DNA of 64,000 bases from Escherichia phage GEP101, in sequence record PQ036202. One strand, 5' to 3'. Below are positions 24,766 through 61,888 of this stretch, in pieces. Each line of letters opens with the position of its first letter. Position 1 is the stretch's first letter. The notes below the pieces were generated by a model. That model saw nothing but the letters and a program-made list of their open reading frames with translations, had not been told where the DNA came from and searched no databases. The position numbers were made by a program, and so were the translations under genes.

Positions 24766-24770
24766 AGTTT

Positions 24771-24798: not shown

Positions 24799-24801
24799 GT
24801 T

Positions 24802-25701: not shown

Positions 25702-25702
25702 A

Positions 25703-27021: not shown

Positions 27022-27034
27022 AGTTAATCACCTA

Positions 27035-27394: not shown

Positions 27395-27395
27395 A

Positions 27396-27695
27396 TTAAT
27401 CTGCCAGCCTTAAATTAAAATTAACACCAAATTTTTCGCATACCTCCAACATATACTCAAGGGATACATTACCAGTGAGGTGGATTATGTTGGATACACG
27501 AGCCTGAGAGATACCGCAAATTTTAGCAACTTGCTCTTGAGAAAGACCTCTGGATTTAATCTCTCTCTTAAAACGATGTGCAACGAAATCTCTCATTTCG
27601 TCTACATCCATTGGACAAATATAACTCTCCATTTCAGCCTCTCTGTCAGCCTCCCAATCATCTTGTGGAGCATAGGGGTCAAAAACCTCATTCAT
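27396..27695 (-). CDS. XRE-family helix-turn-helix transcriptional regulator
   Basis: LSQEQVAKICGISQARVSNI HTH motif; start taken at internal ATG 27695 to avoid overlap with upstream ORF. Confidence 0.6.
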   Translation of the reverse strand: MNEVFDPYAPQDDWEADREAEMESYICPMDVDEMRDFVAHRFKREIKSRGLSQEQVAKICGISQARVSNIIHLTGNVSLEYMLEVCEKFGVNFNLRLAD

Positions 27696-27900
27696 CTTTC
27701 TTCTTCCGTTTTCGTGAAGTGTCAATCAATGAATCTATGTTTGTAGCCCTAACCTTTTCACGTTCATCATTAAGATAATCATCAAGAGCCTTCTCAATCT
27801 GTGAATCATCTTGACAGATGACTGTAAAGACTGTAAAGCCGTCTGTATCATCAATTATCTTACCATAACCGCTTCTGGGATGTAACTTTTTAAGAGCCAT
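27688..27900 (-). CDS. hypothetical protein
   Basis: 70-aa ORF with basic C-terminus. Confidence 0.35.
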   Translation of the reverse strand: MALKKLHPRSGYGKIIDDTDGFTVFTVICQDDSQIEKALDDYLNDEREKVRATNIDSLIDTSRKRKKKDE

Positions 27901-27901
27901 A

Positions 27902-28285
27902 TCAAATACCTGTGCAGCTTCTGTTTTCTAAGAAATACTCAACACCATACATAGCTTTTTGCATCAAATCTTCTTTAAACTGGATACGATGATTGAGCAT
28001 AGCCTGTACATCAATATCCTCATGGTGCTTCTCTTTAATGTTTGCAGATTGCAGGAAATACTCTGCAAGAACACGATACTGATAGTCAGTTACTTTATCA
28101 GTCATCTCTGTTAAAGACTCTTCAGAGATTGGTTTAAGTAACTCACCATTAGCCAGAGCAACACCTTTAACAATCTGACAAGTATCTTCTGGAACACCTG
28201 ATAAGTCCACATTCGGGAGTTCTGTTGCATTGACTGGTAAATTCATTGCCATAACCATTGCAGCAGCTAATAAAATCTTTTTCAT
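27902..28285 (-). CDS. secreted/periplasmic protein with N-terminal signal peptide
   Basis: MKKILLAAAMVMAMNLPVNA signal-peptide-like N-terminus. Confidence 0.45.
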   Translation of the reverse strand: MKKILLAAAMVMAMNLPVNATELPNVDLSGVPEDTCQIVKGVALANGELLKPISEESLTEMTDKVTDYQYRVLAEYFLQSANIKEKHHEDIDVQAMLNHRIQFKEDLMQKAMYGVEYFLENRSCTGI

Positions 28286-28329
28286 AATGACCCCAAAGTT
28301 ATATTAAATTTTGTATTACATTGAGTATA

Positions 28330-28358
28330 AAAATAAGCTATAACACCTGACTTGTCAA
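28330..28358 (-). promoter_or_regulatory. candidate sigma70-like promoter (TTGACA-N17-TATTTT) for secreted-protein gene
   Basis: Minus-strand TTGACA at 28358..28353, weak -10 at 28335..28330. Confidence 0.3.
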
Positions 28359-28416
28359 CAGACTTTATAGCTTATTTGGCAGATTTTTTATAAGGCTACT
28401 GCCATCCTTCCATACA

Positions 28417-28436
28417 TTACCTTACCTTACCTTACC
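28417..28436. repeat. pentanucleotide tandem repeat (TTACC)x4 on + strand, GGTAA on - strand
   Basis: Direct read: TTACCTTACCTTACCTTACC in 302-bp intergenic region. Confidence 0.6.
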
Positions 28437-28553
28437 AGACCACACCATGCAAAACCAGACTTCACATCACCCGACTGTGCAATACTTCACTTAAAAACCC
28501 TCTTAAAAGACTCTTAAGTGATGCTGGTGAGTACCCGTTGGTTTATGCTGCTC

Positions 28554-28581
28554 AGTATACTCACCAAATTTTCTATGTCAA
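28554..28581 (-). promoter_or_regulatory. candidate sigma70-like promoter (TTGACA-N16-TATACT)
   Basis: Minus-strand TTGACA 28581..28576 and TATACT 28559..28554 just downstream of ligase stop. Confidence 0.35.
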
Positions 28582-28587
28582 CAACTT

Positions 28588-29688
28588 TTATTCATAATCT
28601 CGTATAACTAACCCAACAGGGAACTGTAAAGAACCTTTACGAGTCATCTTCTGGAACTGAACCGTCAAAGGTTTCCCGATAAACTCTTCAGGATGTTCAG
28701 CAAGATACTGTTTCTTCTCATGAGTAGTCTTCCATGAGACATCTACAAAGACGTTAGGAAGAGTCTCTACAACGAACTTGCCATGACCACGTTTATCGGT
28801 CTTTACACCAGTCACTTTAAACTCTTCAGTGTGCATCTTCTTGTGCTTAATCAAGAAGTATGAACGGTGACAACACTCATAGAAGGAGTCTTCAGAGATT
28901 GAACGGTACATTGCACCTTCAAACTGAGCTTCAACCCACTTATCATGGGCTTCATCAAACTCTTCCCAAGAATTTACACGACGAGACTTAACAGGAACAA
29001 CTTTACAGCCATCTCTGAAGTCATTCAATGGTGAAGTCTCAATAATGTCTCTACGCTCAGGCCACGTCTTAGTACTGTCACAAATATCGTACCAGTAGAA
29101 CTGGAGTAGATGTCGGTCTGGATTGTCAGCATTCTTAATCATAGACACAATATCTTCTAAGTCCCAACCATGAGCATAAATCTCACCATCAAAGTCTTCG
29201 ACTTGTGGATGCAATTTAAGCAACAAAAGCAAATCTGGGATTAGTTCTGCTGGGACGTTGTAAATAGTATTCTCACGAGAATAAGCCGTGAAGCTAACTA
29301 AATCAGCATCTCTTGAAATTCTACAACGAACACCATCAAGTTTCGGTTGAGCATCAGCAGGGAACTTCAAATACTTTGCATGACTAACCTTTGCAGCATC
29401 ATGAGCAAGCTGCACACCTACCTTCTCAGTATTCTGTGCAGACTCTTTTGTGTAAGCATAACCTTTGCGTTCAACTTGCTTTTTATACTTAGCAGCAACT
29501 TCAAAGAGAGCTTGCTGTTCAGCGTTACGCTCATTCTTTTTACCGATGTTTTTAGGTTCTGCTGTATACTCTTCAAACATCATCTTGCCATTTTCTTTAC
29601 CGTAGGTTGTAATAACTTTGTCACCTACAGCAACGCATGACCAGACGTTAAAAGAGCCGTCTTTATTTTGTTTGTACAGTATTGTCAT
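28588..29688 (-). CDS. ATP-dependent DNA ligase
   Basis: Adenylation motif KLDGVR (KxDG) and overall T7-like ligase size. Confidence 0.8.
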   Translation of the reverse strand: MTILYKQNKDGSFNVWSCVAVGDKVITTYGKENGKMMFEEYTAEPKNIGKKNERNAEQQALFEVAAKYKKQVERKGYAYTKESAQNTEKVGVQLAHDAAKVSHAKYLKFPADAQPKLDGVRCRISRDADLVSFTAYSRENTIYNVPAELIPDLLLLLKLHPQVEDFDGEIYAHGWDLEDIVSMIKNADNPDRHLLQFYWYDICDSTKTWPERRDIIETSPLNDFRDGCKVVPVKSRRVNSWEEFDEAHDKWVEAQFEGAMYRSISEDSFYECCHRSYFLIKHKKMHTEEFKVTGVKTDKRGHGKFVVETLPNVFVDVSWKTTHEKKQYLAEHPEEFIGKPLTVQFQKMTRKGSLQFPVGLVIRDYE

Positions 29689-29891
29689 TTTCTCTTACCA
29701 CCAATTTCTACGTCAATAACTTGAACATCACCAGCAACATCGAACTTATGGATGATGCTTTCCACAGTGTAAGTCCAACCATCAATGCGAACCAACTCAC
29801 CTTCCCGTGGGACTATTGGATTACGTTGAGCTACGGTTGTAGTGGAGTGAACAACATCATAACAGTAGATATAGTTTACTAGGACTTCCAT
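29685..29891 (-). CDS. hypothetical protein
   Basis: Start moved to internal ATG 29891 with GAGG RBS to remove overlap with lipoprotein gene. Confidence 0.35.
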   Translation of the reverse strand: MEVLVNYIYCYDVVHSTTTVAQRNPIVPREGELVRIDGWTYTVESIIHKFDVAGDVQVIDVEIGGKRK

Positions 29892-29901
29892 CTTGAAAAC
29901 C

Positions 29902-30138
29902 TCACTCAATAACAGTAGTGTGTGATTGACCATTTTTGCCATAGCTATAAGATGTTGTTGTTTGAGAGTTTGGACATCTGACAACAACAATATCTCTGCT
30001 TATGGCATCACCATGTAACTTATAGACTTTGCAATCTTGCATCTCTGGTGGGAGGCTATAAGAAGCATTTTTATCTTCATAAGAAGGGTTGCACCCAGCT
30101 AGAAAAATAACACCAAGTGCAATTACTGCTTTCCACAT
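29902..30138 (-). CDS. small lipoprotein
   Basis: MWKAVIALGVIFLAGC lipobox after ATG 30138 with AGGAGAGG RBS; 78 aa. Confidence 0.5.
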   Translation of the reverse strand: MWKAVIALGVIFLAGCNPSYEDKNASYSLPPEMQDCKVYKLHGDAISRDIVVVRCPNSQTTTSYSYGKNGQSHTTVIE

Positions 30139-30151
30139 AATACCTCTCCTA

Positions 30152-30307
30152 TTACTGTTCACGATGTTCTACTTCTCTGTACGTTCGTCGATAGTATATA
30201 ATAAGCTGTGCTAACTCGTTGCTTTTAACATCTGAACGTAGCAGTTGCCAATCAAAACCTTTACCAACTCTTCCATATAAGCTAAATAATTTTACTTTGC
30301 GTTTCAT
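30152..30307 (-). CDS. small hypothetical protein (51 aa), not in ORF track
   Basis: ATG at 30307 with GGGAG RBS; translation MKRKVKLFSLYGRVGKGFDWQLL... Confidence 0.3.
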   Translation of the reverse strand: MKRKVKLFSLYGRVGKGFDWQLLRSDVKSNELAQLIIYYRRTYREVEHREQ

Positions 30308-30324
30308 TTTGGTACTCCCAATAC

Positions 30325-30552
30325 TCAGAGGCCAATGCTAATACGTTCACCCTTGAGGACTCCTGTACGGTCTCTTGCAATCTTACCGTCAACAATAAGG
30401 ATATGCGCAGACTTTAAAGATTCACTATTAAAACCTTTTACGAACTTACTAGGCATCACCACAATAAGCATCTCTTGAATCAACTCTGGAGTATAGCAAT
30501 TGTCGTGAAGTTGCTGAATAACGTCTGCAAGTGTCATTTTTGATGTCTCCAA
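30325..30552 (-). CDS. hypothetical protein
   Basis: 75-aa ORF. Confidence 0.35.
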   Translation of the reverse strand: METSKMTLADVIQQLHDNCYTPELIQEMLIVVMPSKFVKGFNSESLKSAHILIVDGKIARDRTGVLKGERISIGL

Positions 30553-30743
30553 TACTCAATATCAATAAGTTCTTGTGCAATGCTTTTCAGATTACCTTTC
30601 AAGAAAACCTTCTCAGAACCTGAAAGAGATGAATTGTCAATTAACCTGTTCATTCTCTCAAACAACTTCTGCTTACGATTCTTGATAGTTTCCTTTGAAG
30701 CCCCTTTCATCATTGCTGCATGGGTTCTTCCACGGTGGCTCAT
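30534..30743 (-). CDS. hypothetical protein
   Basis: 69-aa basic ORF. Confidence 0.35.
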   Translation of the reverse strand: MSHRGRTHAAMMKGASKETIKNRKQKLFERMNRLIDNSSLSGSEKVFLKGNLKSIAQELIDIEYWRHQK

Positions 30744-30794
30744 AAGACCTCCTATATAAGATATTGTATAAGGTACTCTTCCCTGAGCACCTTG

Positions 30795-31328
30795 TCAAGA
30801 TAGTTTTGCAAACTCTCCGTGGAGTTTAATAGCAGCTTCACAGTAAGCTTTATGGGCTTCTTCTGGTGTGTCATGATAACCTAAAAACATCTTCTTACCT
30901 TTATAACTTATCTGTGCGACCCACTTACCAGACTTCTTCTTAAGACTTACACCCTTGTACCCAGATTTATTGGTGACTGGTTTACCTTTATTCCAAGCAC
31001 TTTGAAAGTCATCTGCTTCCCTTAAGTTTACAATCCTGTTGTCAAGTGAGTCTCCGTTGATATGGTCAATGATACCTTTTGGCATCTTGCCATACACGTA
31101 AAGCCATGCGAGTCTGTGTGCTTTATGTGCTTTCTTGTCAAAATAGATACTAACCTGTTTATGACCACTTGAATCAGTCTGGATATTACCTGCCACCTTT
31201 CCTGCATAATTACTGTTAAAAACACTAACAGCTCTTGATTTACCTTCTCTACGAAGCCAAGTAAAGACCCCTGTTTCGGGGTCATAGTGCAGCAGCTCCT
31301 TTAAACGTTTTTGTAAAATTAAATCCAT
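30795..31328 (-). CDS. HNH homing endonuclease with AP2-like DNA-binding domain
   Basis: IDHINGDSLDNRIVNLREA HNH motif; YKGVS...KWVAQISYKGKKMFLGYHDTPEEA AP2-like; start 3 nt after DNA polymerase stop. Confidence 0.75.
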   Translation of the reverse strand: MDLILQKRLKELLHYDPETGVFTWLRREGKSRAVSVFNSNYAGKVAGNIQTDSSGHKQVSIYFDKKAHKAHRLAWLYVYGKMPKGIIDHINGDSLDNRIVNLREADDFQSAWNKGKPVTNKSGYKGVSLKKKSGKWVAQISYKGKKMFLGYHDTPEEAHKAYCEAAIKLHGEFAKLS

Positions 31329-31331
31329 TAA

Positions 31332-31888
31332 TCAATGTACCTCATACCAGCTCTTACCAACCTTTGCTGTACCAGTTACAAGTGTTTCTTTCCTCAAACC
31401 TAAGTTTTTTGAAGCTTGTCCATACATCCAGTCAGCAATTGCTTTCATATCATGTGTCATACCCTCTGGACATTCCCAACTATTTTCATCGTGATATGCC
31501 AGAAGTAACCTTGCTCCGATAGCTGGTTTTCGAGCATTCAGTTTTGTCAGGCCATCTTCACAGGCTTTTCTTGCTGCTAGGTTGATGGCCTCATTCTGAA
31601 TCTGTGCTTCCGAACTCATCAGGAGGTAGTTCAGTAGTTTATGTGGAGATTTGCACCATATCCATGCTCCAGCGACCCTGATATAACCACCTTTAGCAAT
31701 TGAAGAGTTCTTCCCAAAAACCTCTTCCAGAGCCTTTTTAGACACCTTAAAATCAGCTTCTAAGCTATCAAGTAACTTCTTAATCTTTGGCAAACGCATA
31801 TAGTAAGTTTGTTTAGTCAATGCACCTTCTTCCGTAGATGATGCCTTGATAGTTTTTGCAAACTTCTCATCGCCAGCCCCGAACAATA
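31332..31888 (-). CDS. DNA polymerase family A, exon 2 (C-terminal, motif B second half and motif C)
   Basis: LFGAGDEKFAK aligns with T7 pol FLYGAGDEK; HDE motif C; no ATG at exon start (ORF track begins at TTG). Confidence 0.75.
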
Positions 31889-32156
31889 CATCTGGTCAAT
31901 ACACTCGCAAGGTGTACCAGTTCTCTTATGAACTTCTCCGCATTTCTACGGAGTGTCGGACTATATCACGTAGCAGTGATGCTACCGTTGCACTTGGGGA
32001 TGGCCATTAGCTTACCACCCTACTCTACTCAGTTCATACATTAAGTATGCTTTTCGATAGTCTCTGAACGTTCCTCTTAAGAGGCTTCGCTGCTGATTAC
32101 CATATCTTTCCAGACTTAGGCTTCCAGCAATTCACAACGTTTTACATGCGCCACTG
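31889..32156 (-). ncRNA. group I self-splicing intron (ORF-less) in DNA polymerase gene
   Basis: Minus-strand P/Q/R/S elements AATTGCTGGAA, AATCAGCAGC, GTTCAGAGACTATCG, GTGATATAGTCCG; IGS GCGCAT pairs exon end ATGCGT with U-G at splice site; terminal G. Confidence 0.8.
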
Positions 32157-34299
32157 ACGCATAAATGCCATTTTTGGCTTTCTTACGACCTTTTGTAATC
32201 TCGTGAAGAAGCTCCTCATCCTGCGTCTCCCTACAACGAACAATATCATCTTCCTTGTTTAGACCAAAGTAAATACTATTCAGTGTATGTGCATCAGTAC
32301 CTGTGTAGACTTCGTAGAGGTCATTCTCAGCATCATAACGAAGATACTTATCAGTTTCTGGATTGAGGTACTTATCGAGATGCTTGCAATAGTATCTTCC
32401 ATCCTCTTGCTTGGTAAATTCTACTGACTCTTTACCTTCAGTTACCGCTTTGGTGAAGTCTTTATCACCCATAAAGTTACACAGTAAAACAAGCTGTGCA
32501 GAGTTCTGGTCAACTGAAACGATATTAGTCCCTTCCTCGCAAATCCACACCTCCCTCATAGGTGCTCCATAGACAGCAGCACCAGACGGTACGTTTACAA
32601 TACCATATTGTGTCATACGTCCAGTTGAAGTACCAAATACCATTGCACCGGCACTAAGGCGACCATCAGGGCGAATCTGGTTCAACCAACCTTTTTCATC
32701 ATCCTTTGAGTTCTCAATAGTTCTACGTCGGTGCATCAAAGTGTAGTATTTCGCAATCTTCTGTCCAAGCTCACCTTCAATCGTATCATAAGATGATTCA
32801 GTAAGTTTTGGTGAAGTACGGATTAAGCAAGGCTCAAGCAAATCTGTGTACTTCTTCACAGACCAGTTATGCTCAATGTACTGGACACCTTCATGTTCAA
32901 CATAACTCAAACCACACCGTTCCACCATCTCATCCCACTTAGGATGCTTTGTAATCATCTTTTTGTTGTCTTTGAAACGACAAACTTTGACAGGACGACC
33001 GTCAGAGTCTTTCTTGTAGTTCCAGTCATCTGGAATCCAACCAACTGATTTCAAGTAGTCTTTAACAACTGCTACCTGAGTCATACGAGAAACTTCGAAC
33101 TCAATTGGTGTATATGGTGCATCAATCAAACCTGTGTAGCGACTTGACTCAAGCTCAAAGTGGTTAACGACATGGCTGTTATAGTACTTCACAGTTTTAA
33201 CTGTTTTTACTGGCTTCCAGTCTTTGCACTTCTTACCAATCTTTGCATTCAACTCATTGCAAATTGCACGAGCATCCTTCATTGCTACAAAACCTTCCTT
33301 GTACTCTTCACCAGTTACAGAGTTGGTTGGTGTATAGCAATTCCGCTTTTCAATGTTAAAAATCTTTGTAGTTGGCTTACCAAATGGCTTGATTTCATAT
33401 GTCTGCATCTCACCGTTACGTACCTGTTGACGATACTTTGTCTTAGGGTACTTGGTAATTCTTTTCAGTCCATCTGCATGACCAAATGCTTCAACATACT
33501 CATTCCAAGCTTTTGCAAACTCTTCTCCAGTGACTTTACCTTTGGTCTTAATAGTTGGAGGAAGATGTGGTTCAACTTCTGAAGCAAGCTCATTAGTCAA
33601 CTTGTCAAGTTCCTTTACATGAAACTCCATAAGCTCTTTATCAGCTTTCCAACCATTGATAGCCTGTTGACTCATCCAGAAAGATGTTTCTTTAGCTCGC
33701 ATGTAAGTCTCATAAGTGTCTATACCACACTTCTTAAGCTTGAGATACTCGTTATCAAGTGCCCGTTTAGTTTTGGCGTTGATACGGATATCTTCCACAA
33801 CACGAGTGAAGATTTCTGCATTCCACACACCCCAATGTTCAATCTCTGGTTTACGGACACCAACACGAGCACCCCATGCTGCCAAGCCATGAGCACCTTT
33901 ATAGCCCTTTGGAGTTGGTCTATCCATCCACTGAACACGAGACTGGATAAGAGAATCCTGAAAGAAATTACTCCACGGCTTACACTTTGGATTATCAAAG
34001 TTCCACAAATCAGGTGCAATGTGGTTGAAAACCCACCAGTCATAACCGAGACCGTTATGGATGCAAAGACGTTTTGCCTTTAACGCAAACTCAACACCTT
34101 CACGCAAACCACCCTTAATGTACTTGGTGTACTTGTGACCGAGGATAGGCTCATCTGTAAAGACCCATACAGGTGGCTCTTCATCGTCAGATTTATAGTC
34201 TGCGAAAGCCATGACGTGTACTTTAGTGAACTCAAGGAGTAAACCATCAGTTTCTGTATCACCAACTAAGTGTAAGTTTTTAAAATCTACGTTTTCCAT
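32157..34299 (-). CDS. DNA polymerase family A, exon 1 (3-5 exonuclease and polymerase motif A, first half of motif B)
   Basis: GDTETDGL exo motif (cf. Pol I DTETDSL), DQNSAQLVLL motif A-like, RKKAKNGIYA start of motif B; start at ATG 34299 with GAGGGA RBS. Confidence 0.8.
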
Positions 34300-52755: not shown

Positions 52756-52928
52756 CACCAACACTCCTCGAATGGCAACGTAAGCACGGTATCACGGCTG
52801 AGGCTCTGGCTGACCTTGTGACAAAACCAGTACCAGATGGCATAGGTAAATGTTCAGTGATTTATCACGTTGTAGACCCTGCAAAATGCAAATCTGCAAT
52901 GGCAGTAACAAACGTAACTTTTGATTGA
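52737..52928 (+). CDS. hypothetical protein
   Basis: 63-aa ORF overlapping methyltransferase 3-prime end. Confidence 0.3.
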   Translation: MWENFMTPTLLEWQRKHGITAEALADLVTKPVPDGIGKCSVIYHVVDPAKCKSAMAVTNVTFD

Positions 52929-52942
52929 GAGAGAGAGAAACT

Positions 52943-53824
52943 ATGAAAACATCTATCCGTGTTACAGTTCATTCACCAACTAAAGGGACTCATGAAGAAG
53001 AGTTTAACATCATCCAATTCCCTTCTGGTGAGATTGGTGGACACTTTTCACCAGAGTTTGTTGATTTTACTACCTATGCAGCATCATCTATCAACAATGT
53101 GATTATGATTGTAAAAGGCTATGATAAAGATATATTGTTTGCTGTGGCACTTGCTAAAGAGGCAGTGGACAACTTAGTACCTCATAAGTTTGCTATGAAG
53201 ACTGTTATCTTTTACTATTTACCAAATGCACGTTATGACCGTCACATGTTTAAAGGTGATGCAGCAGCTTTGAAAGTGTTTGCACAACAGGTTAATGCAA
53301 TGGGTTTTGATGCAGTCTGTGCAGTTGACCCTCACAGTTATGTGCCAGATAACCTGTTTAACTGCTTCCAGAGCATTCCTCAAAAGGAAATTGCAGTCCA
53401 CTATGCAAATGACCCACTGGTTGATTACTTAGTAGCCCCAGATGCAGGTGCTTCTAAGAAGATTGCAGAAACTGCTAAAGAAGTGGATAAACCATACATC
53501 ACAATGTCTAAAGTACGTAACCTTAAGACTGGTGAAATTACTGGTATGCGAATCCTTGATGATGTTGATTTGACCGATAAAACTGTTATGATTCTCGATG
53601 ATATCTGTGATGGTGGTCGAACCTTCATAGAAGCAGCTAAACATCTTCGTGAAGCAGGTGCAAAACGTGTGGAACTCTATGTAACTCATGGTATCTTCTC
53701 TAAAGGTGTTGAAAACTTACTTGACAATGGTATTGACCATATCTACACTACAAACTCTTTAGGGGAAGCTAAAGACCGTGGCTTAACACATTATGCCCAA
53801 GTTACTGTAGCAAACCTTGATTAA
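52943..53824 (+). CDS. ribose-phosphate pyrophosphokinase-like enzyme (Prs family; candidate NARP1 Adps)
   Basis: PRPP-binding-like motif VMILDDICDGGRTF; ATG 52943; immediately upstream of NAMPT homologue. Confidence 0.75.
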   Translation: MKTSIRVTVHSPTKGTHEEEFNIIQFPSGEIGGHFSPEFVDFTTYAASSINNVIMIVKGYDKDILFAVALAKEAVDNLVPHKFAMKTVIFYYLPNARYDRHMFKGDAAALKVFAQQVNAMGFDAVCAVDPHSYVPDNLFNCFQSIPQKEIAVHYANDPLVDYLVAPDAGASKKIAETAKEVDKPYITMSKVRNLKTGEITGMRILDDVDLTDKTVMILDDICDGGRTFIEAAKHLREAGAKRVELYVTHGIFSKGVENLLDNGIDHIYTTNSLGEAKDRGLTHYAQVTVANLD

Positions 53825-53869: not shown

Positions 53870-55651
53870 ATGACTAAATCACTTTATGCAGTGCCAGCAG
53901 GTTTAAACGCAGATGCTTACAAGGCATCACATATATATCAGTATCCAGATGCCACACAGTACCTTATGCTGAACCTGACACCACGTAGTGATAAATGGTT
54001 TAACAGTCCTTTAGCCATTGACGGTGTAGTTGCTTTTGGTATTCAACGTTTTGTTAAAGATTATTTAATAGACCACTGGAATGCCACCTTCTTTGAACGT
54101 GACAAAAAAGAAGCAATTGACGAAATCTTAGAAGTCATGAACGGTGTTCTGGGTAAAGATGCTATTGGTCGAGAACACTGGGAAGCACTACATGACTTAG
54201 GTTATCTACCAGTTGAAGTGTACGCTGTAGAAGAAGGCACAGTTGTACCTATGCGTGTACCAATGATTGTCTTCCAGAACACTGTTTCAGGTTTCCATTG
54301 GGTAGCTGGGTATCTGGAAGATGCTTTCTCTGCTGAGATTTGGAAGGCTTGTACCATTGCAACTATTGCATTGCACTACAAACGTATCTGTAAGAAGTGG
54401 TCTGACCTTACTTGTGACAATGACTTGCATTTGCCTTATCAGTGCCATGACTTTGCTATGCGTGGTATGTCTGGCTTTACTGATGACGCATTTAACGCTG
54501 TAGGCCACTTAACCAGCTTTAAAGGAACTGATAGCTTCCCTGCTGTATATACAGCTAAACGAATCTATGGACAGTCCTACCCAATCTCTGATATTGGCAG
54601 CTCTGTACCAGCCACTGAACACTCTGTAATGTGTGCAAACATTGCTTGGGAAGGTGGTAATGAGTTGATTGAAGAAGAAAGACGCTTTAAAGGTGAGTTA
54701 CAAACCTTCCGTCGTTTCTTAACAGAAACTTACCCAACTGGTATTGCAAGTGTTGTTTCAGACACTTATAATTTCTGGAGAACTGTATCAGAAATCTTAC
54801 CAGCACTTCGTAAAGAGATTATGGAACGTGATGGTAAACTGGTAATTCGTCCTGACTCTGGAGACCCTGTACATATTGTCACAGGTTATAAAGCAATCCA
54901 CTTAGAGTGTGCTAAAAAGGCTTATTACGAACACCTAAGCAAGCTGGAAGCCAGCGACACAAAGTTGAATGCTGTTCTGAACATGAATCTTGAAGACATT
55001 CACTATATTATGGCTGGGTGGTTACGTACAGAAGGCTATGAAATGGTGGTTGACAGAGAAGACTTTGAAGTAGCTGATACAGTGCTTCTGAAAGATGCCT
55101 ACATCAATGGCTCTGCAAACGTTGTAACACGTCCTGTAGCAGAGATTGATGGGGCTATTAAGACCCTGTATAACATCTTTGGAGGGACTATCAACTCTAA
55201 AGGCTTTAAGGTACTGGATGAGCACATTGGCCTTATCTATGGTGACTCTATCACGTTGGAACGTGCAAACGAAATCCTGAAGCGTTTGTATGAAATGGGT
55301 TTTGCAAGCTCTAACGTAGTGTTTGGTGTAGGTTCTTACACTTACCAGTACATGACTCGTGACACCTTTGCATTTGCTGTCAAAGCAACTCTTGCAAGCA
55401 TTGGTGGTAAAGAGATTATGCTTGCAAAAGACCCTAAAACAGATAGCGGTGTTAAGAAGTCTGCTTTTGGTGGTGTAGCACCTATGTGGGATGGTGATAA
55501 GCTGAAAGCTGTAGATGGCTATGGATTCCAGAGCTTTGCAGATGTGCTTGAACATCCAGCTTGTGCTTTACGTTTAATCTTTAGTGACTCTGAGCAGTTC
55601 GGTTACACAACTCTTGGTGATATTCGAAATAATATTGACAAGCAGCTTTAA
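53870..55651 (+). CDS. nicotinamide phosphoribosyltransferase family protein (candidate NARP1 Namat)
   Basis: DFAMRGMSG, SVPATEHSV, VVSDTYN, IRPDSGDP motifs characteristic of the NAMPT family. Confidence 0.85.
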   Translation: MTKSLYAVPAGLNADAYKASHIYQYPDATQYLMLNLTPRSDKWFNSPLAIDGVVAFGIQRFVKDYLIDHWNATFFERDKKEAIDEILEVMNGVLGKDAIGREHWEALHDLGYLPVEVYAVEEGTVVPMRVPMIVFQNTVSGFHWVAGYLEDAFSAEIWKACTIATIALHYKRICKKWSDLTCDNDLHLPYQCHDFAMRGMSGFTDDAFNAVGHLTSFKGTDSFPAVYTAKRIYGQSYPISDIGSSVPATEHSVMCANIAWEGGNELIEEERRFKGELQTFRRFLTETYPTGIASVVSDTYNFWRTVSEILPALRKEIMERDGKLVIRPDSGDPVHIVTGYKAIHLECAKKAYYEHLSKLEASDTKLNAVLNMNLEDIHYIMAGWLRTEGYEMVVDREDFEVADTVLLKDAYINGSANVVTRPVAEIDGAIKTLYNIFGGTINSKGFKVLDEHIGLIYGDSITLERANEILKRLYEMGFASSNVVFGVGSYTYQYMTRDTFAFAVKATLASIGGKEIMLAKDPKTDSGVKKSAFGGVAPMWDGDKLKAVDGYGFQSFADVLEHPACALRLIFSDSEQFGYTTLGDIRNNIDKQL

Positions 55652-55662
55652 AAGTATATGAT
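55635..55662 (+). promoter_or_regulatory. candidate promoter TTGACA-N16-TATGAT
   Basis: Direct read at 3-prime end of NAMPT gene, upstream of 55705 ORF. Confidence 0.35.
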
Positions 55663-55690
55663 AAGAGGCTCCTACGGGAGCCTTTTTAAT
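55663..55690 (+). terminator. rho-independent terminator
   Basis: AAGAGGCTCC-TACG-GGAGCCTTTT hairpin followed by T-run. Confidence 0.5.
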
Positions 55691-55704: not shown

Positions 55705-56040
55705 ATGAAAATCAAAGAGATGAATATCAATATTGTCTTAGAAGAACGTTGGGAGAACATCAAGAAGCCTGAAAATGGTCATAAGTTCCTCAACAAAATC
55801 TTAGTAGCAGCTAAAGAAGAACTGACTGGCAAGGTTGCAGCAGCAATCACAATAAAGGTGTGTGTAAAGGGTCTTCCAGACAATCACCAATTTGCACTTG
55901 ACGAGTTTAAAGAAAGCTTCTACAATCCAAACAAACAGATGTTTGAAAGTAACTTTGCAGTATCTACAAGTATCGTCCATGACAGAAGCTTTATCCTTTA
56001 CAAGAATATGAGAGGTGAGTCATGCAAGCATATTGGATAG
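55705..56040 (+). CDS. hypothetical protein
   Basis: 111-aa ORF. Confidence 0.35.
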   Translation: MKIKEMNINIVLEERWENIKKPENGHKFLNKILVAAKEELTGKVAAAITIKVCVKGLPDNHQFALDEFKESFYNPNKQMFESNFAVSTSIVHDRSFILYKNMRGESCKHIG

Positions 56041-56198
56041 AAATTTTACTGTCACTTGGTAGTGTAGCAGTCTTTGTTTACCTTCTTTGCAAGTACTACG
56101 CAGAGCACAAAAAATGTGACTTCTGTAATGGAGAGGGCTATACAAGAGCAGGTTGCTGCCCTATGTGTGGTGGTTCTGGTAAAATGTTTAATAAGTAA
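56022..56198 (+). CDS. small membrane-anchored zinc-finger protein (58 aa), not in ORF track
   Basis: ATG 56022 with GAGGTGA RBS; hydrophobic N-terminus then CDFCNGEGY...CCPMCGGSG (DnaJ-type CxxCxGxG). Confidence 0.35.
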   Translation: MQAYWIEILLSLGSVAVFVYLLCKYYAEHKKCDFCNGEGYTRAGCCPMCGGSGKMFNK

Positions 56199-56226
56199 TT
56201 CAACAGTAAACTAAGAGGAAAGTATT

Positions 56227-58593
56227 ATGCGCATGGTAAACGACCACGCAGAAGTGATTAAGAGTTCAACTTCTTTAGAGACGTCGCAAGCACAGATTAC
56301 AATGACACCTGAAATGTTCAGCCTTCTGAGTTCTGGTGTATATACATTTAAAGAGCGAGCAGTAATTCGAGAACTGTCATGTAACGCAGTAGATGCTCAG
56401 AAAGAAGCTGGAAAAGAGAACATCCCGTTCCATGTGCATTTACCTACTCGTTTTGAACCTTACTTTGAAGTCCGTGATTTTGGAACTGGATTGACTCATG
56501 ATAAAGTTATGAGTTTGTATCTAAACTACGGGGCTTCTACAAAGAATGACTCTAATGACTACATTGGTGCAATGGGTATCGGTTCAAAATCTCCATTTGC
56601 AATTGCTCAGTCATTCACAGTATCTAGCTATGTTGATGGTATTGTTAATAAGTACTCTGTTTACCTTGAGAATGGTATCCCTCAAGTAACTAAGCTGACC
56701 ACCAACCCAACAAAAGAACCTAACGGTTTAGCTGTACGTGTAGCAGTTGCTGACCATCGTATCTCAAAGTTCTTTGAAGAAGCTGGTCACGTATACTCAT
56801 ACTTTGCTGTAAAACCAGAAAGTAATATCGAGTATGACGATGTATTAGCAGATATGAATGTCATTGCCCGTGAAGAAGGTATTTATGATGCCATGATTCA
56901 TAAGCAAAGCTGGCGCTCTAGCAGTAACAGGACAGGGTTTAATGTGGTGATGGGTAACATTGCCTATCCAGTTAACATGGAAGCATTACTTGGTGATGAT
57001 TTCTTCAAAATCTTGCCAGAATTTTTCCGTAGGAGTGTAGACCTTGTAAACATCTACATGCCTATTGGTTCAGTTGCTATAGCAGCTTCTCGTGAAGCTT
57101 TGCAGATGAATGATACGACAAAAAATGCTATCATTGAAGCTACTAAAAAGATAACTGAAGCAATCACAAAGGATGTTATCAAGAAAGTTAATAACCAACC
57201 TACACTCATGGATGCTGCACAGGCTTATGCTGAGTTACGTTTAAACTCACGAGAGATGTTTAATGCTGTGTGTCCAAAGCTAGAGTGGGGAGGCGTGAAG
57301 CTTGATTCTTTGGAAGAAGAATTGCTAAACATTCGTCGTGGAATTATCTACGCAGAAGACGGCTCAGTCATTTACGAACGTGACGGTAAAGGCAATATTA
57401 AGGTTGATAGGAACGGGAACAATATCCCTAGAGTGGATTACCTTTATGACCCAGTTGCTTATGTCAAGTTCAACTCTTTAGAGAGTAAGATTCGTGCAAC
57501 ATCACTTTCCTACACTCAAGAGGCAAGTATGTTCAATATCTTTGGCGCAATGCGTAAAAGCCAAATTGAACAGTTTTTGTTTGTCATAAATGACCGTCGC
57601 AATAAAAACGGTACTGAGAAGACTGTAGGACGCAATCAAATCTTGCGTGGTGCATGTCGAGACTATGCCAGTGAGTCGGATATGTTTCACAGATACAATG
57701 GTATTGTCTTTGTATTCTCTACTGAGGAAGAGCTAGATGATTTAATCAATCTGCACAAACTTGATAAAAGCTTGTTAAAGATTGTGAAGATGTCTGATAA
57801 GGAACATCATTATCAGCGTAAAGAAGCTGTAAGAGGTGTTGTAAAACTTTGGAAAGCTGTTCCAGCAGAAGGTGTAGCTTCATACACAGAGGTGTCAGAA
57901 GACTTAGACACGATTGAAGAGCCTCAGCTTTATATTAAGGCAGTTGGTGACACAGTTGATGGCGAATGTTTTTGCTCATCTCCAGAAGATGTAGCTAAGT
58001 CAGTTGCTAATGTTACAGGTAAGACAGTCTATGTTTTCCGAAAAGCAAATTGGAAAAAGATACCAGAAGACTGGATTGAAGTAGATGAGAAGCTCTTGAA
58101 CGACAGCTTAACTGATGTTCACTGGATTAATCATAACAGGTATATGACACGTATCTATATCAATGGTGTCCTAGACCTTACAAGCAGTTGGATTATTGCC
58201 AGAAACTTTACTTTCAATAACAGGAAGATTTCTCGTGGTTATTGCTATTCACGAGACACAAACAAAACTATCTTCTTAGAAGGTAATGAAGATGCTGTTG
58301 AGGCAATGTTCGGTAAAATCCAATACGTTGCTGCACCATTTGCATACACTTACACTATTAGTGTGTTGCAAGATTTGAAAAGGTGTCTTGACAACGATAC
58401 AAAGCTGTACAAGAAAATCAAGAAGGCTGGTGACCGTATGGTTATTAAGGTGACAAACTATCTTTTAAAAAGAAAACAAGAAAACTTCTTGCTTTCTCAT
58501 TTAGATTGGAATAAAGTGTCACCCATCGAAGTGAGTAAGTTCTTAGGCTTTGATGTGAAGTGTGTTCCAGAAGGGACTACAATTTACGATTAA
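56227..58593 (+). CDS. GHKL-type ATPase domain protein, rIIA-like
   Basis: Bergerat-fold motifs RELSCNAVDA (N box), VRDFGTGL (G1), GAMGIGSKS (G2) near N-terminus; 788 aa followed by a 368-aa gene. Confidence 0.55.
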   Translation: MRMVNDHAEVIKSSTSLETSQAQITMTPEMFSLLSSGVYTFKERAVIRELSCNAVDAQKEAGKENIPFHVHLPTRFEPYFEVRDFGTGLTHDKVMSLYLNYGASTKNDSNDYIGAMGIGSKSPFAIAQSFTVSSYVDGIVNKYSVYLENGIPQVTKLTTNPTKEPNGLAVRVAVADHRISKFFEEAGHVYSYFAVKPESNIEYDDVLADMNVIAREEGIYDAMIHKQSWRSSSNRTGFNVVMGNIAYPVNMEALLGDDFFKILPEFFRRSVDLVNIYMPIGSVAIAASREALQMNDTTKNAIIEATKKITEAITKDVIKKVNNQPTLMDAAQAYAELRLNSREMFNAVCPKLEWGGVKLDSLEEELLNIRRGIIYAEDGSVIYERDGKGNIKVDRNGNNIPRVDYLYDPVAYVKFNSLESKIRATSLSYTQEASMFNIFGAMRKSQIEQFLFVINDRRNKNGTEKTVGRNQILRGACRDYASESDMFHRYNGIVFVFSTEEELDDLINLHKLDKSLLKIVKMSDKEHHYQRKEAVRGVVKLWKAVPAEGVASYTEVSEDLDTIEEPQLYIKAVGDTVDGECFCSSPEDVAKSVANVTGKTVYVFRKANWKKIPEDWIEVDEKLLNDSLTDVHWINHNRYMTRIYINGVLDLTSSWIIARNFTFNNRKISRGYCYSRDTNKTIFLEGNEDAVEAMFGKIQYVAAPFAYTYTISVLQDLKRCLDNDTKLYKKIKKAGDRMVIKVTNYLLKRKQENFLLSHLDWNKVSPIEVSKFLGFDVKCVPEGTTIYD

Positions 58594-58598
58594 AGTGT

Positions 58599-58628
58599 TT
58601 GACAAGGGGCTTCAAAGCCCCTTAGAAT
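58599..58628 (+). promoter_or_regulatory. sigma70-like promoter TTGACA-N18-TAGAAT with hairpin in spacer
   Basis: Exact TTGACA 58599..58604 and TAGAAT 58623..58628; spacer contains GGGGCTTCAAAGCCCC. Confidence 0.4.
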
Positions 58629-58674
58629 AACCTCACAAAATGATTTATTAACTAACAAGAGAGAGAGTAATAAG

Positions 58675-59781
58675 ATGACTACTAAAACTAAAGCACAGAT
58701 TGACGCAGAAATTTACAAACTGGTTAAAGAAGGTAAGCTGACTAAAACAGCTATTGCACAGAAGTTCAATACTTCAACCCGTTCAGTTGGTCGTGCTGTA
58801 GAGCGTCATGAAGCAACCTTAAAAGGTAAGAAAAAGGTAGTTTCTAAACCAGCTACAAAGACTTTGAAACAAGTTGCCAAGACCTTTAAAAAGAAAGCTG
58901 ACAAACCAGTTGAAAAGGTTGTTAAAGACACTGTACAGAAAGCTCCAGTAAATAAACTGCATGAAGCTATGCAGAAAGATGACAAGATTGAGTACATGAT
59001 TACTGGTGACTCTGTAATTATGACTTATGGTTCAGAATCTGAAATTGTTGAGTCCACTCATCCGAACTATCAAGAGATTGTAGTTCATGTTGTGAAAGGT
59101 GAGTTCAAGAAAGCCTTTGAACTGATGAACATTCGTAAGTCTATCGAAAACTTCACTCAGGGTGCTATCACAATCAAAGGTGATAAGCTATTCTACGGTG
59201 CTGTTGAGATGCGTTCTACTCTGGTTGACCGTATCCTTCACATGATGAAGACTGGTGATAAAGGTTTTGAACGACTTGTAATGTTCTTCGAAAAACTGAT
59301 GGAAAACCCATCTAAAGGCTCTGTAGAACAACTGTGGGGATTCATATCTCACCTTGATGTTGAAATTGATGAAGAAGGTTACATTATCGGTTGGAAAAAG
59401 GTACAAAGTAAAGCTGACGGTTCTCTGGTAGACAGCCACACCCATAAAGTACCTAATGACTTGGGTAACCTAGTTGAGATGCCTCGTTGGATGGTTGATA
59501 ATGACCCTAACCGCACTTGCTCTCAGGGTTTACATGTTGGTGCATGGGGATATGTATCATGTTTTGGAGGTGATACCATTCTGAAAGTTCGTGTCCATCC
59601 ACGAGATGTTGTATCTGTTCCGACTGATTACAATGATATGAAGATGCGTGTATCAGCTTATGAGTCTTTTGCGATTGTTGACAGCAACCGTAAAGTTATC
59701 AAGGCTCACTCCGGCTCTGGTGGGTATCGTGTAGTGATTGGTTCTCACGGTGAGTTAATCTCCAAGACAGTACGCGTTTAA
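58675..59781 (+). CDS. hypothetical protein, possible rIIB-like partner
   Basis: Position immediately after rIIA-like gene; basic N-terminus; no motif verified. Confidence 0.35.
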   Translation: MTTKTKAQIDAEIYKLVKEGKLTKTAIAQKFNTSTRSVGRAVERHEATLKGKKKVVSKPATKTLKQVAKTFKKKADKPVEKVVKDTVQKAPVNKLHEAMQKDDKIEYMITGDSVIMTYGSESEIVESTHPNYQEIVVHVVKGEFKKAFELMNIRKSIENFTQGAITIKGDKLFYGAVEMRSTLVDRILHMMKTGDKGFERLVMFFEKLMENPSKGSVEQLWGFISHLDVEIDEEGYIIGWKKVQSKADGSLVDSHTHKVPNDLGNLVEMPRWMVDNDPNRTCSQGLHVGAWGYVSCFGGDTILKVRVHPRDVVSVPTDYNDMKMRVSAYESFAIVDSNRKVIKAHSGSGGYRVVIGSHGELISKTVRV

Positions 59782-59792
59782 TAGTTTACAAT

Positions 59793-59816
59793 AGGCTACT
59801 TCGGTAGCCTTTTTTG
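59793..59816 (+). terminator. rho-independent terminator (UUCG loop)
   Basis: AGGCTAC-TTCG-GTAGCCT followed by TTTTT. Confidence 0.55.
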
Positions 59817-59830
59817 ATATGGGAGGATGA

Positions 59831-60730
59831 ATGGCTAAAGCAGAACTTGATAAATACTACACACCAGATGAAGTAATAAGAGTGTGTGAATATAAGCTAC
59901 AAAAGGTCTTTAAAGGCTCTATTTCGTGCATTATAGACCCCTGTGCAGGTGACGGAAGATGGAAAGATTCTTTTAAGAGGGTTTGTCAAGATGTTGTGCT
60001 ATACGACATCGAACCAGACTCTGAGGATGTTAGTACAAGAGACTTCCTGAAAGATGACTTAGAGATTCCAGATAAACCTTTTGCGATTGTTACCAACCCT
60101 CCATTTGGTAAGGCAAATAGTCTGTCTACAAAGTTCTTTAACAAGGCTGCTACAATGAATCCAGACTACATTTGCTTCTTAGTTCCTATTAACTTTGGGA
60201 AGAAGAATCTTAGCAGACTTAGCAGAGAGTACACCTGCATTGACGAAGTAGAACTACCTAACCTTCATTTTGAAAGGATTGATGGAGTTACCTACTCAGC
60301 AAAAGAGTCGTCACTACGCTGTAACTTCCAAATCTGGAAGAGACAAAAGCGGACAGATGAAACTTGTAAGATTGTTCCTGTGATAGTTGATGGTGTAAGA
60401 GTCTATAAGCGTGAGAAATTCACACTATACAGGCCACCATGTCACAAGATTGATGGTAAAGAACAGCCAGTAGGTGTTTTAGGCAAACTGGATGGAAAAG
60501 ATTTGTTCACGATTATTACACATGGTCGTAAGGCTGGTACTGTGAAGGTCTTTGAACCAGATAAAGATAAGGTGTCTGTGAAACAATTTATCGAGCCTCA
60601 CATAGAAGGGCTTTACTCAGCAATCAAACAGGATTGGTTCGAAGATTTAAGAGATGGTTTTGCGCTGAGTTATGCAGGTTCGATAAATTCACAGGAAATC
60701 ATAGAAACCATAGAAAAACATTTGCATTAA
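59831..60730 (+). CDS. gamma-class N6-adenine DNA methyltransferase
   Basis: YYTPDEV, DPCAGDG (motif I) and NPPF (motif IV) in gamma order. Confidence 0.65.
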   Translation: MAKAELDKYYTPDEVIRVCEYKLQKVFKGSISCIIDPCAGDGRWKDSFKRVCQDVVLYDIEPDSEDVSTRDFLKDDLEIPDKPFAIVTNPPFGKANSLSTKFFNKAATMNPDYICFLVPINFGKKNLSRLSREYTCIDEVELPNLHFERIDGVTYSAKESSLRCNFQIWKRQKRTDETCKIVPVIVDGVRVYKREKFTLYRPPCHKIDGKEQPVGVLGKLDGKDLFTIITHGRKAGTVKVFEPDKDKVSVKQFIEPHIEGLYSAIKQDWFEDLRDGFALSYAGSINSQEIIETIEKHLH

Positions 60731-60785
60731 TAAAAGAATGTGTGTAGTATACCTGTAAACAAACCAAGTAGATGAGAGAGTAATC

Positions 60786-61625
60786 ATGAAATTCAAAGAG
60801 TTCCAGAGCAAAACACCTTGTAAGATTGATTTCGTTTGTGGTGTAGCCTCATTCTTCATGGGGTACATGGACTGGGCTAACTGTGCAAAACCTTACTCAG
60901 CAAACCGTAGCATCGAGCGACGTATTACAAAACCATATCTTAATGAAGACCTTCGTGAGGTGGATTTACGTTCCCGTGTTACGGGTGTACTGTTCAATGG
61001 AGAAGTTATCAACATTGATTCTCATGCTCGTGTAGAGAACTGGAAGAATGGTAAATTAGGTGCTCCCAAGAACGGCCTTGTCTATGTGACCCTGTTTGCT
61101 GTTAATTCACAGGAAGAAGTAGATTTCCTCTACGACCAAGAAAACTCACTGGACTCACGAGCTACGAATGGTGACCAAATTACAACTGCAATACTACGCT
61201 CTGGTTATAAGCCACAGACAGCGTTCACCAAGAAATTTACTGGTGCTGGTGTGTGGGCCTTATTAGGTCTCCGTGGATGCCTTGATGAAGCATTTGTACT
61301 CTATCAAGAAGAGCTTAAACTTATTGATGCACTTGGCATTGATAAGGATGAGATGGATAAGTACAAAGAGAAGACTGTAAATGGTGTTAAGCAGAAGTGT
61401 GAACTGCGTAAAAAGTACTCTGCTCCAATTATGGCAGCAATGCTTAAGAGCTTCAAAGAAAACCCTGAAAAGGCTACAAAGTTCTGGTTGGACTACCGTG
61501 ATGATGATGAGTCTGTAAGCAGCTTCTTAGATGCCATGAAGACCCAGTATGACCAGAATGGTGGTGTGTTTCAAGGTTATGTAATGTCACAAGCTGACGT
61601 TGCATTTAGAGCTTATAAGGACTGA
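60786..61625 (+). CDS. hypothetical protein
   Basis: 279-aa ORF. Confidence 0.35.
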   Translation: MKFKEFQSKTPCKIDFVCGVASFFMGYMDWANCAKPYSANRSIERRITKPYLNEDLREVDLRSRVTGVLFNGEVINIDSHARVENWKNGKLGAPKNGLVYVTLFAVNSQEEVDFLYDQENSLDSRATNGDQITTAILRSGYKPQTAFTKKFTGAGVWALLGLRGCLDEAFVLYQEELKLIDALGIDKDEMDKYKEKTVNGVKQKCELRKKYSAPIMAAMLKSFKENPEKATKFWLDYRDDDESVSSFLDAMKTQYDQNGGVFQGYVMSQADVAFRAYKD

Positions 61626-61860
61626 TATGCAAGTTAAAAAGATGATGGTAAGAGTTGCTCTCAAGTATCTGGGGGCAGCTACACAATACGAAGTAGCAGA
61701 GTACCTCTCTGCAAAGTTTGGTAAAAAATATCTCCCATCGGATTTTACACAGACTTTTATAGACTTAGAGAAGACGAAGACTATCACTAAGTTACCTGTT
61801 AAGCGTCGTAACTTTCGTAATGGGAAACCTACAGGTTTTGGGAACCTCTACGTAATGTAA
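61600..61860 (+). CDS. hypothetical protein
   Basis: 86-aa ORF. Confidence 0.3.
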   Translation: MHLELIRTDMQVKKMMVRVALKYLGAATQYEVAEYLSAKFGKKYLPSDFTQTFIDLEKTKTITKLPVKRRNFRNGKPTGFGNLYVM

Positions 61861-61863
61861 CTA

Positions 61864-61888
61864 AAAGGCTGCTTCGGCGGCCTTTTTT
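61864..61888 (+). terminator. rho-independent terminator (UUCG loop)
   Basis: AAAGGCTGC-TTCG-GCGGCCTTT followed by TTTTTT. Confidence 0.5.

Follow-up and report, generated by a model that had tools for sequence, protein, structure and literature searches.

Gene content and identity of the locus

The locus at positions 56,227–59,781 of the window (the whole 64 kb stretch of DNA that was analysed) comprised two ORFs on the plus strand, separated by an intergenic gap of 81 bp (Table 1). The original prediction had described an rIIA-like ATPase of 788 aa followed by a 368 aa protein that was called rIIB by position only; its coordinates and lengths were exact, and both ORFs begin with ATG. Purine-rich Shine–Dalgarno-like sequences were present 5' of rIIA (AAGAGGA, 56213–56219) and 5' of rIIB (AGAGAGAG, 58660–58667).

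Table 1. Positions of genes, protein regions and putative regulatory elements at the locus
Feature	Position	Strand	Description
rIIA gene	56227..58593	+	788 aa, 89.6 kDa, pI 6.2; ORF, PHROG, T4 RIIA, annotation of relatives
GHKL (Bergerat) ATP-binding fold and adjoining transducer-type domain	56281..57216	+	RIIA residues ~19–330 (approximate boundary, derived from aligned lengths)
GHKL motif I (N box)	56371..56394	+	E49-x3-N53-x2-D56; invariant in 80 homologues
GHKL motif II (G1 box)	56476..56490	+	D84-F-G86-T-G88; no variation at D84 or G86, at least 90 % conservation at G88
GHKL motif III (G2 box)	56566..56583	+	G114-A-M-G117-I-G119; G114, G117, G119 and K121 invariant
RIIA C-terminal half, family-variable	57217..58590	+	residues ~331–788; covered by phrog_612 match
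Putative sigma-70-type promoter	58599..58628	+	TTGACA-N18-TAGAAT; 11/12 hexamer match, 5' of rIIB
8 bp GC-rich hairpin	58604..58623	+	AAGGGGCT-TCAA-AGCCCCTT; fills promoter spacer, -13.3 kcal/mol
rIIB gene	58675..59781	+	368 aa, 41.3 kDa, pI 9.4; ORF, T4 RIIB, PHROG
RIIB N-terminal three-helix HTH	58690..58827	+	residues 6–51
RIIB Lys-rich disordered linker	58834..58941	+	residues 54–89; pLDDT <50
RIIB conserved core (Phage_T4_rIIB region)	58954..59778	+	residues ~94–368
Intrinsic-terminator-like hairpin and T-run after rIIB	59793..59818	+	AGGCTACTTCGGTAGCCT then TTTTTTGA

Similarity searches bore out both gene calls. RIIA matched phrog_612 over the full length of the profile (E 9.6e-190; residues 1–770 on positions 1–716 of 725), and BLASTP aligned it to T4 RIIA (NP_049616) at 33 % identity across residues 24–317 (E 2e-38). 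RIIB matched phrog_609 (6.8e-88) and phrog_3803 (2.2e-50), along with a further three RIIB PHROGs, and displayed 37 % identity to T4 RIIB (NP_049889), with residues 11–330 aligned to 13–302 of 312 (BLASTP E 2e-61). The start of the phrog_609 profile (1055 positions) matched the RIIA N-terminus and its end matched RIIB; no RIIA–RIIB fusion protein was found among the 240 homologues listed. In precomputed annotation, PF26926 (Phage_T4_rIIB) was assigned to all 120 RIIB homologues listed bar one 207 aa fragment, including the 97 %-identical P0001, but was not reported in the Pfam scan of the window RIIB. A phmmer search of either protein against PDB sequences returned nothing meaningful.

In GenBank, 209 phage records matched the locus with at least 80 % coverage and 90–96 % DNA identity, and nearly all of the matches listed carried rIIA/rIIB labels. 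Salmonella phages SP4, SEP1 and SP2 shared 95.6 % DNA identity with it. At the protein level, RIIA was 97.8 % identical to SP4 rIIA and 96.4 % identical to gp84 of Bas63 (Escherichia phage JohannRWettstein), whilst RIIB was 92.9 % identical to Bas63 gp85, the Bas63 proteins, like the rIIA/rIIB products of Felix O1 and other Felixounavirus phages, being orthologues of the window pair. The Felix O1 genome paper lists rIIA as gene 1 (PMC3185647). Gene order, the putative intergenic promoter and hairpin, and the upstream genes (PRPP-synthetase-like, NAMPT and two small ORFs) were as in the window in Felixounavirus relatives including Bas63 and Felix O1. A three-gene cassette 3' of rIIB (59831–61860) was present in the window but not in Bas63, and SP4 shared the methyltransferase-like and 279 aa genes at the cassette position. 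The 58 aa ORF just 5' of rIIA, which encodes a TM segment and two CxxCxGxG motifs, was considered as a conserved third member and rejected, as it had no similarity to T4 rIIA.1 and the two fell in different PHROGs.

The likeness to the rIIA–rIIB arrangement noted in the original prediction extends well beyond close relatives. An rIIA gene directly 5' of rIIB was also found in T4, the linear record of which is opened between the two genes, and in Ounavirinae, and an RIIA-like gene lay immediately 5' of an RIIB gene in two distant metagenomic loci; this adjacency and order were kept even in relatives at ~26 % identity. On sequence evidence, the pair is rIIA and rIIB of a Felixounavirus, a Felix O1-like myovirus of E. 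coli, Salmonella and Shigella. The locus is ordinary and already known, relatives having been annotated in this way beforehand. The main yield for the window is an annotation settled as Felix O1-type rIIA/rIIB, a 70-year-old locus, with modest additions: a two-domain GHL module in RIIA that is nearest Hsp90 in fold, an accessory HTH in RIIB, and an RIIB core for which no solved structural relative was found.

Architecture of RIIA and RIIB

All three GHKL motifs named in the original prediction were present in the RIIA translation, as RELSCNAVDA (residues 48–57), VRDFGTGL (82–89) and GAMGIGSKS (114–122), and their conservation was scored in an alignment of 80 homologues with identity down to ~22 %. 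The motif I stretch aligned with the Hsp90 signature IRELISNxxDA, and a profile match to TRAP1 was obtained at 3e-5. Fold comparison placed the ATPase module nearest to Hsp90 paralogues, and beyond it the likeness took in only part of the following domain. RIIA is a soluble protein of ~90 kDa in which the first ~330 residues make up an ATPase module of GHL type (GyrB/Hsp90/MutL/MORC-like), its catalytic motifs all intact; hydrolysis of ATP is predicted from these motifs and the fold. RIIA differs from the GHL ATPases (Hsp90/TRAP1/GRP94, type II topoisomerase ATPase domains, MutL and MORC): it lacks the Hsp90 middle and C-terminal domains for client binding and dimerization, as well as Toprim, MutL C-terminal and CW domains, and curated family models scored far below threshold.

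The C-terminal half of the protein is RIIA-specific. Its ~460 residues gave no BLASTP alignment to T4 RIIA, for most homologues below 45 % identity the alignment was limited to the first ~40 % of the protein, and a C-terminal domain of great variability has been described for RIIA (PMC7824862). This half was modelled with confidence, and no PDB match was seen outside the ATPase module. A homopolymer contingency switch, as in T4 rIIA, was considered and set aside: rIIA contained one A6 run (57120–57125) and rIIB none, and homopolymer runs in the two genes were below the window average (0.67 per kb).

RIIB is homologous to T4 RIIB over almost its whole length, HTH and core included, but carries a Lys-rich linker of ~40 residues not found in T4 and a C-terminal extension of ~35 residues. 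The HTH was predicted confidently and resembled the DNA-binding domains of sigma region 4, DeoR, LuxR-type regulators and DnaA. It is followed by a strongly basic stretch (15 K/R versus 3 D/E across residues 51–95). The core contained the motif TCSxGLHVG ... PxDVVSVPTDYNxxKMR, and C282, G285, H287, P309, D311, S314, P316, K323 and R325 were invariant or near-invariant across 86 sequences. Distant homologues without the HTH and linker retained the C-terminal core with all invariant residues, and the HTH is therefore accessory. An ADP-ribosyltransferase fold was considered for the core and rejected, no structural match to ART domains having been found.

The rIIA–rIIB intergenic region

The putative promoter noted in the original prediction lies inside the 81 bp gap in the orientation of rIIB. 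Promoter-like sites matching at least 11 of 12 hexamer positions occurred seven times on both strands of the window, against 2.05 ± 1.4 expected from first-order Markov simulations. The hexamers of the rIIB site were conserved in two genera, Felixounavirus and Mooglevirus. In T4, too, rIIB is preceded by its own promoters. The 2010 list of Felix O1 promoters does not include the TTGACA-N18-TAGAAT site (PMC3185647). Expression of rIIB would probably combine read-through from upstream early promoters with initiation at its own conserved sigma-70 promoter.

Among the six sites in the window with a perfect TTGACA, that of rIIB was the only one with a structured spacer. Across relatives the stem was conserved whilst the loop varied (TCAA, TTGA or GAAA), a different hairpin occupied the rIIA–rIIB gap of phiEa21-4, and no U-tract followed the spacer hairpin. 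A conserved hairpin within the promoter spacer is the only minor curiosity of the locus.

Function of the module and alternative explanations

Published experiments with relatives show the pair to be dispensable on naive hosts and both genes to be required for plating where the host has certain abortive-infection systems: lambda RexAB in the case of T4, N4 and SUSP1 (Ounavirinae), and QatABCD in that of Bas63. Knock-down of rIIA or rIIB in SUSP1, N4, MM02, EdH4 and T4 lowered EOP only on RexAB hosts (PMC11879866), and T4 transposon data agree. In Bas63, deletion of g84 or g85 reduced EOP 10^4–10^5-fold on qatABCD hosts and was complemented; the two deletions gave the same defence-specific phenotype, and the genes were described as co-essential (PMC11482910). 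As these phenotypes against QatABCD are strong and clean, Felixounavirus offers a good experimental handle on rII.

Taken as a whole, the locus is very probably a Felixounavirus rIIA–rIIB module in which an RIIA ATPase clamp and RIIB counter membrane-depolarizing defences. RIIA would act as an ATP-driven dimerizing clamp or chaperone working with RIIB, and early in infection the two proteins may prevent, or undo, either the trigger or the effector step in such defences. The membrane would thereby be kept energized, allowing infection to finish. Neither protein contained a segment at TM level (maximum KD19 1.29 for RIIA and 0.80 for RIIB), and any membrane role would therefore be peripheral or indirect.

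A more specific proposal, which we consider unlikely when its parts are taken jointly, assigns separate activities to the two proteins. The RIIB core, with its invariant C282, H287, D311, S314, K323 and R325, would act enzymatically or bind a specific ligand or effector, and would not be a passive 'membrane protector'; RIIA would be an Hsp90/MutL-type clamp that loads or regulates this core in an ATP-driven manner. Together the two would disarm several unrelated defences (RexAB and QatABCD) via one shared host target. The hairpin would set the RIIA:RIIB ratio by giving rIIA transcripts an RNA 3'-end or a stability element, with the same DNA restarting transcription for rIIB.

RIIB has alternatively been viewed as mainly a DNA-binding transcription factor that tunes phage or host transcription (Iyer et al. 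2021), and has been called a specific transcription factor (PMC7824862); RIIA would then be a separate counter-defence ATPase. The confident N-terminal HTH followed by a basic linker fits such a role, as do HTH Pfam matches in approximately 15 of 86 RIIB homologues, but the absence of both elements from distant homologues with an intact core argues against it. The equivalence of the rIIA and rIIB deletions in Bas63 and their co-essentiality (PMC11482910) point the same way, and T6 RIIB is toxic by itself and sets off a gasdermin system, which is unexpected for a simple repressor. We regard this explanation as quite improbable.

The label 'RIIA/RIIB lysis inhibitor' implies a main role in lysis timing (lysis inhibition) instead of counter-defence, in keeping with the historical T4 phenotype (r for rapid lysis on E. 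coli B) and with the PHROG category 'lysis' given to both families. In T4, however, lysis inhibition proper requires the rI antiholin together with the T holin. Lysis timing as the main role is very unlikely given that rII knock-down was without effect on Rex-less hosts in five phages including one Ounavirinae (PMC11879866), that the Bas63 phenotype is defence-specific (PMC11482910), and that the T4 RefSeq note puts rapid lysis down to 'effects of specific prophage'.

Membership of the 788 aa protein in the MORC/paraMORC group was examined and rejected, since neither a GHKL and S5-fold module nearest to MORC nor MORC-type accessory domains were found. That it is any non-rII GHKL ATPase (Hsp90-, MORC- or topoisomerase-like, the first two having been raised in the original prediction) beside an unrelated downstream neighbour is extremely improbable: the Hsp90-like fold of the module, weak matches to HSP90/sacsin NCBIfam models, a TmtA match in PADLOC, and the lack of any Pfam-A match to the window RIIA would suit this explanation, but both proteins matched RII PHROGs (full length for RIIA, E 1e-189, alongside the direct T4 RIIA match), the curated HSP90 model NF010683, with a cut-off of 455 bits, scored 42.3 and across residues 30–134 only, with no Pfam HSP90 match, and the downstream protein is unambiguously RIIB, in a pair conserved in distant loci.

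Identity and distribution of the gene pair

Both ORFs of the original prediction were recovered with exactly matching coordinates and lengths, and an HMM search against rIIA and rIIB families placed both products in RII families. The rIIA-like identity of the 788-aa protein was confirmed by an end-to-end profile match to PHROG 612 'RIIA' (E 9.6e-190) and by direct BLASTP comparison with T4's own gene products, in which T4 RIIA aligned over residues 24-317 (33 % identity, E 2e-38). The 368-aa protein had been called rIIB on position only. It matched PHROG 609 and 3803 'RIIB' (6.8e-88 and 2.2e-50) and T4 RIIB (37 % identity, residues 11-330, E 2e-61), whilst in a large protein collection PF26926 (Phage_T4_rIIB) was found on all 120 listed RIIB homologues but one 207-aa fragment, including a cluster representative 97 % identical to the window RIIB. 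The rIIB call therefore rests on sequence, and the interpretation as a whole was supported; the outcome named as refuting it, a non-rII GHKL clade followed by a protein unlike rIIB, did not occur. A Pfam search of the window RIIB gave no match because the Pfam copy searched does not report PF26926. The phrog_609 'RIIB' profile spans 1055 positions, the first ~300 matching the RIIA ATPase module (E 4e-46) and the last ~290 RIIB. The profile is thus either a chimera or a product of fused or long forms, and RIIA-like proteins could wrongly receive the RIIB label from it.

Megablast placed the window in genus Felixounavirus (Ounavirinae). The 4-kb locus was covered to at least 80 % in 209 phage records, mostly at 90-96 % identity, with Salmonella phages SP4, SEP1 and SP2 the best matches (95.6 %), and nearly all records listed were annotated rIIA and rIIB, or 'membrane integrity protector'. 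The Felix O1 genome (2010) opened just upstream of its rIIA homologue, making rIIA gene 1 (PMC3185647). This is an ordinary, previously annotated rIIA-rIIB pair from a phage genus that has been sampled very well, with its biology already known; interest is low for the window itself and rests with the rII family overall, namely its mechanism and an RIIB core whose fold has no solved relative. Two distantly related metagenomic phage contigs (RIIB 27 % and 36 % identical) showed the same gene order, with a gene of 629-657 aa directly upstream of rIIB; it was flagged HATPase_c_3 in one contig and matched the window RIIA N-terminal module in the other (26 % identity, E 3e-17). The rIIA-then-rIIB pairing is thus a conserved unit.

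Features of the rIIA-rIIB locus (nucleotide positions in the window) and of its two proteins (residue positions)
Feature	Position	Strand	Detail
Ribose-phosphate pyrophosphokinase-like gene	52925-53824		phrog_619, 2e-98
Nicotinamide phosphoribosyltransferase (NAMPT) gene	53870-55651		phrog_448, 3e-201
Promoter-like site TTGACA-N16-TATGAT	55635-55662		11/12 match; overlaps NAMPT gene end
Strong terminator hairpin	55663-55686		adjoins preceding site
58-aa ORF	56022-56198		immediately upstream of rIIA; phrog_3931 (unknown function)
rIIA ORF	56227..58593	+	788 aa
Promoter-like site TTGACA-N18-TAGAAT	58599..58628	+	11/12 match; in 81-bp gap, points at rIIB
rIIB ORF	58675..59781	+	368 aa
Terminator-like hairpin with T-run	59793-59810		after rIIB
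Three-gene cassette	59831-61860		between rIIB and next conserved gene
Hairpin	61863-61886		after cassette
RIIA GHKL motif I, ExxxNxxD	E49/N53/D56		
RIIA GHKL motif II, DxGxG	D84/G86/G88		
RIIA GHKL motif III, GxxGxG	G114/G117/G119		
RIIB three-helix HTH	6-51		model
RIIB disordered Lys-rich linker	54-89		model
RIIB mixed alpha/beta core	94-368		model

Architecture of RIIA and RIIB

The ATPase motifs quoted in the original prediction were found in the RIIA translation and equal canonical GHKL motifs I-III, with residues invariant across 80 aligned homologues (to ~22 % identity) and G88 conserved in at least 90 %. Structural matches comprised the Hsp90 paralogues TRAP1 (score 16.8, 309 residues aligned) and GRP94 (16.6, 329), topoisomerase II (15.3, 302), the phage T6 topo II ATPase domain (14.6, 251), the MutL N-terminal domain (14.0, 235), MORC2 (12.8, 258) and SMCHD1 (12.5, 255). 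In the model, these aligned lengths show a Bergerat ATP-binding fold followed by a transducer-type domain, which together make a GHL-type module. Such modules dimerise upon ATP binding. R289 and E290 are invariant and sit where the alignment covers the second domain; by analogy with other GHL ATPases they could act as a gamma-phosphate sensor. The family HMM reached TRAP1 at 3e-5 across an Hsp90-style 'LYS-K---IRELxxNxxDA' stretch, and the curated Hsp90 model scored far under threshold (42 bits vs 455); RIIA is therefore not a member of the Hsp90 family, but would work like one.

The C-terminal ~460 residues of RIIA are RIIA-specific and variable: they gave no BLASTP alignment to T4 RIIA, and for most homologues under 45 % identity the alignment is confined to the first ~40 % of the protein, in agreement with Iyer et al. 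2021 (PMC7824862). Neither RIIA nor RIIB contains a transmembrane-grade hydrophobic segment. A homopolymer run in T4 rIIA has been described as a 'contingency locus' with reversible frameshifting (preprint 10.1101/2025.10.21.683753). The window rIIA has one A6 run (57120-57125) and rIIB none; run density is under the window average, with no sign of enrichment.

The RIIB model is of good confidence (pLDDT 86.4) and has three parts, with 15 K/R among residues 51-95. In distant homologues the HTH and linker are missing and the core remains, with its invariant residues (G235, C282, G285, H287, P309, D311, S314, P316, K323 and R325); this makes the core family-defining and the HTH an accessory. Such HTH-less proteins, P0073 and P0101 among them, bear other appendages: P0073 has the C-terminal domain of ribosomal L7/L12, four members have double zinc ribbons, and acidic C-terminal tails also occur. 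The core is evidently a portable domain.

Probable counter-defence function and gene neighbourhood

The PhageMaP study used Escherichia phage JohannRWettstein (Bas63), whose gp84 and gp85 share 96.4 % and 92.9 % identity with the window RIIA and RIIB; deletion of either cut plating 10^4-10^5-fold on QatABCD hosts, and complementation restored it (PMC11482910). CRISPRi-ART knock-down of rIIA or rIIB in T4, N4, MM02, EdH4 and SUSP1 (Ounavirinae) had no effect on naive hosts and reduced plating on lambda RexAB hosts (PMC11879866). HIDEN-SEQ agrees for T4, with rII dispensable on naive and needed on RexAB hosts. T6 RIIB by itself is toxic and sets off CARD-gasdermin systems (PMC10312443). By analogy, the pair is best read as a counter-defence module that becomes essential when the host carries abortive-infection systems. 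Fold and genetics suggest that RIIA may be an ATP-driven clamp working with RIIB, and that the two would stop membrane-depolarising defences at the trigger or effector step.

The pyrophosphokinase-like and NAMPT genes just upstream appear to correspond by position to Bas63 g79/g80, Bas63_0080 being annotated NAMPT; PhageMaP reports g79/g80 as counters of Sir2-HerA (NAD+ replenishment). With rIIA/rIIB and a methyltransferase gene, the two upstream genes make the stretch a cluster of putative counter-defence genes. The methyltransferase belongs to the cassette, which encodes an N6-adenine methyltransferase-like protein (299 aa, NPPF motif; PADLOC MTase_II 1e-22), an uncharacterised 279-aa protein and an ORF of 86 aa. 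In SP4 the methyltransferase-like gene and the 279-aa gene occupy this position too; Bas63 lacks the cassette. The flanking terminator hairpins are similar (AGGCTACTTCGGTAGCCT and AGGCTGCTTCGGCGGCCT), and Felix O1 terminator t2, equal in sequence to window 61866-61886, appears to lie directly after rIIB there; modules may be exchanged by recombination at these hairpins.

The 58-aa ORF encodes a single helix of strong hydrophobicity (KD19 2.11) together with a pair of DnaJ-type CxxCxGxG motifs (CDFCNGEG and CPMCGGSG). Relatives have it under the annotation 'putative membrane protein', and it bears no relation to T4 rIIA.1.

Expression signals

The predicted rIIB promoter-like site was located as described. 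Seven sites this good occur on both strands of the window vs 2.05 +/- 1.4 in Markov simulations, and this one is not among promoters listed in the 2010 Felix O1 paper (PMC3185647). Its 18-nt spacer forms an 8-bp GC-rich hairpin (58604-58623, -13.3 kcal/mol) that overlaps the last -35 and first -10 hexamer bases. Of the six perfect-TTGACA sites in the window, no other has a structured spacer. Both Felixounavirus and Mooglevirus preserve the hexamers and the stem, whilst the loop differs; in Erwinia phage phiEa21-4 another hairpin occupies this gap. The hairpin has no U-tract behind it and so is no canonical terminator; its role may be to mark or stabilise the rIIA transcript 3' end, combined with a restart promoter.

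The promoter-like site at the NAMPT gene end is followed by two small ORFs and then rIIA; its -10 hexamer stops one base short of the adjoining hairpin in a compact stop/restart arrangement. Elsewhere in the window, GC skew is negative from ~24 to 34 kb (24001-34000), consistent with a minus-strand gene block as in the Felix O1 transcription map, and tRNA-Ser(GCT) and tRNA-Cys(GCA) lie at 628-800.
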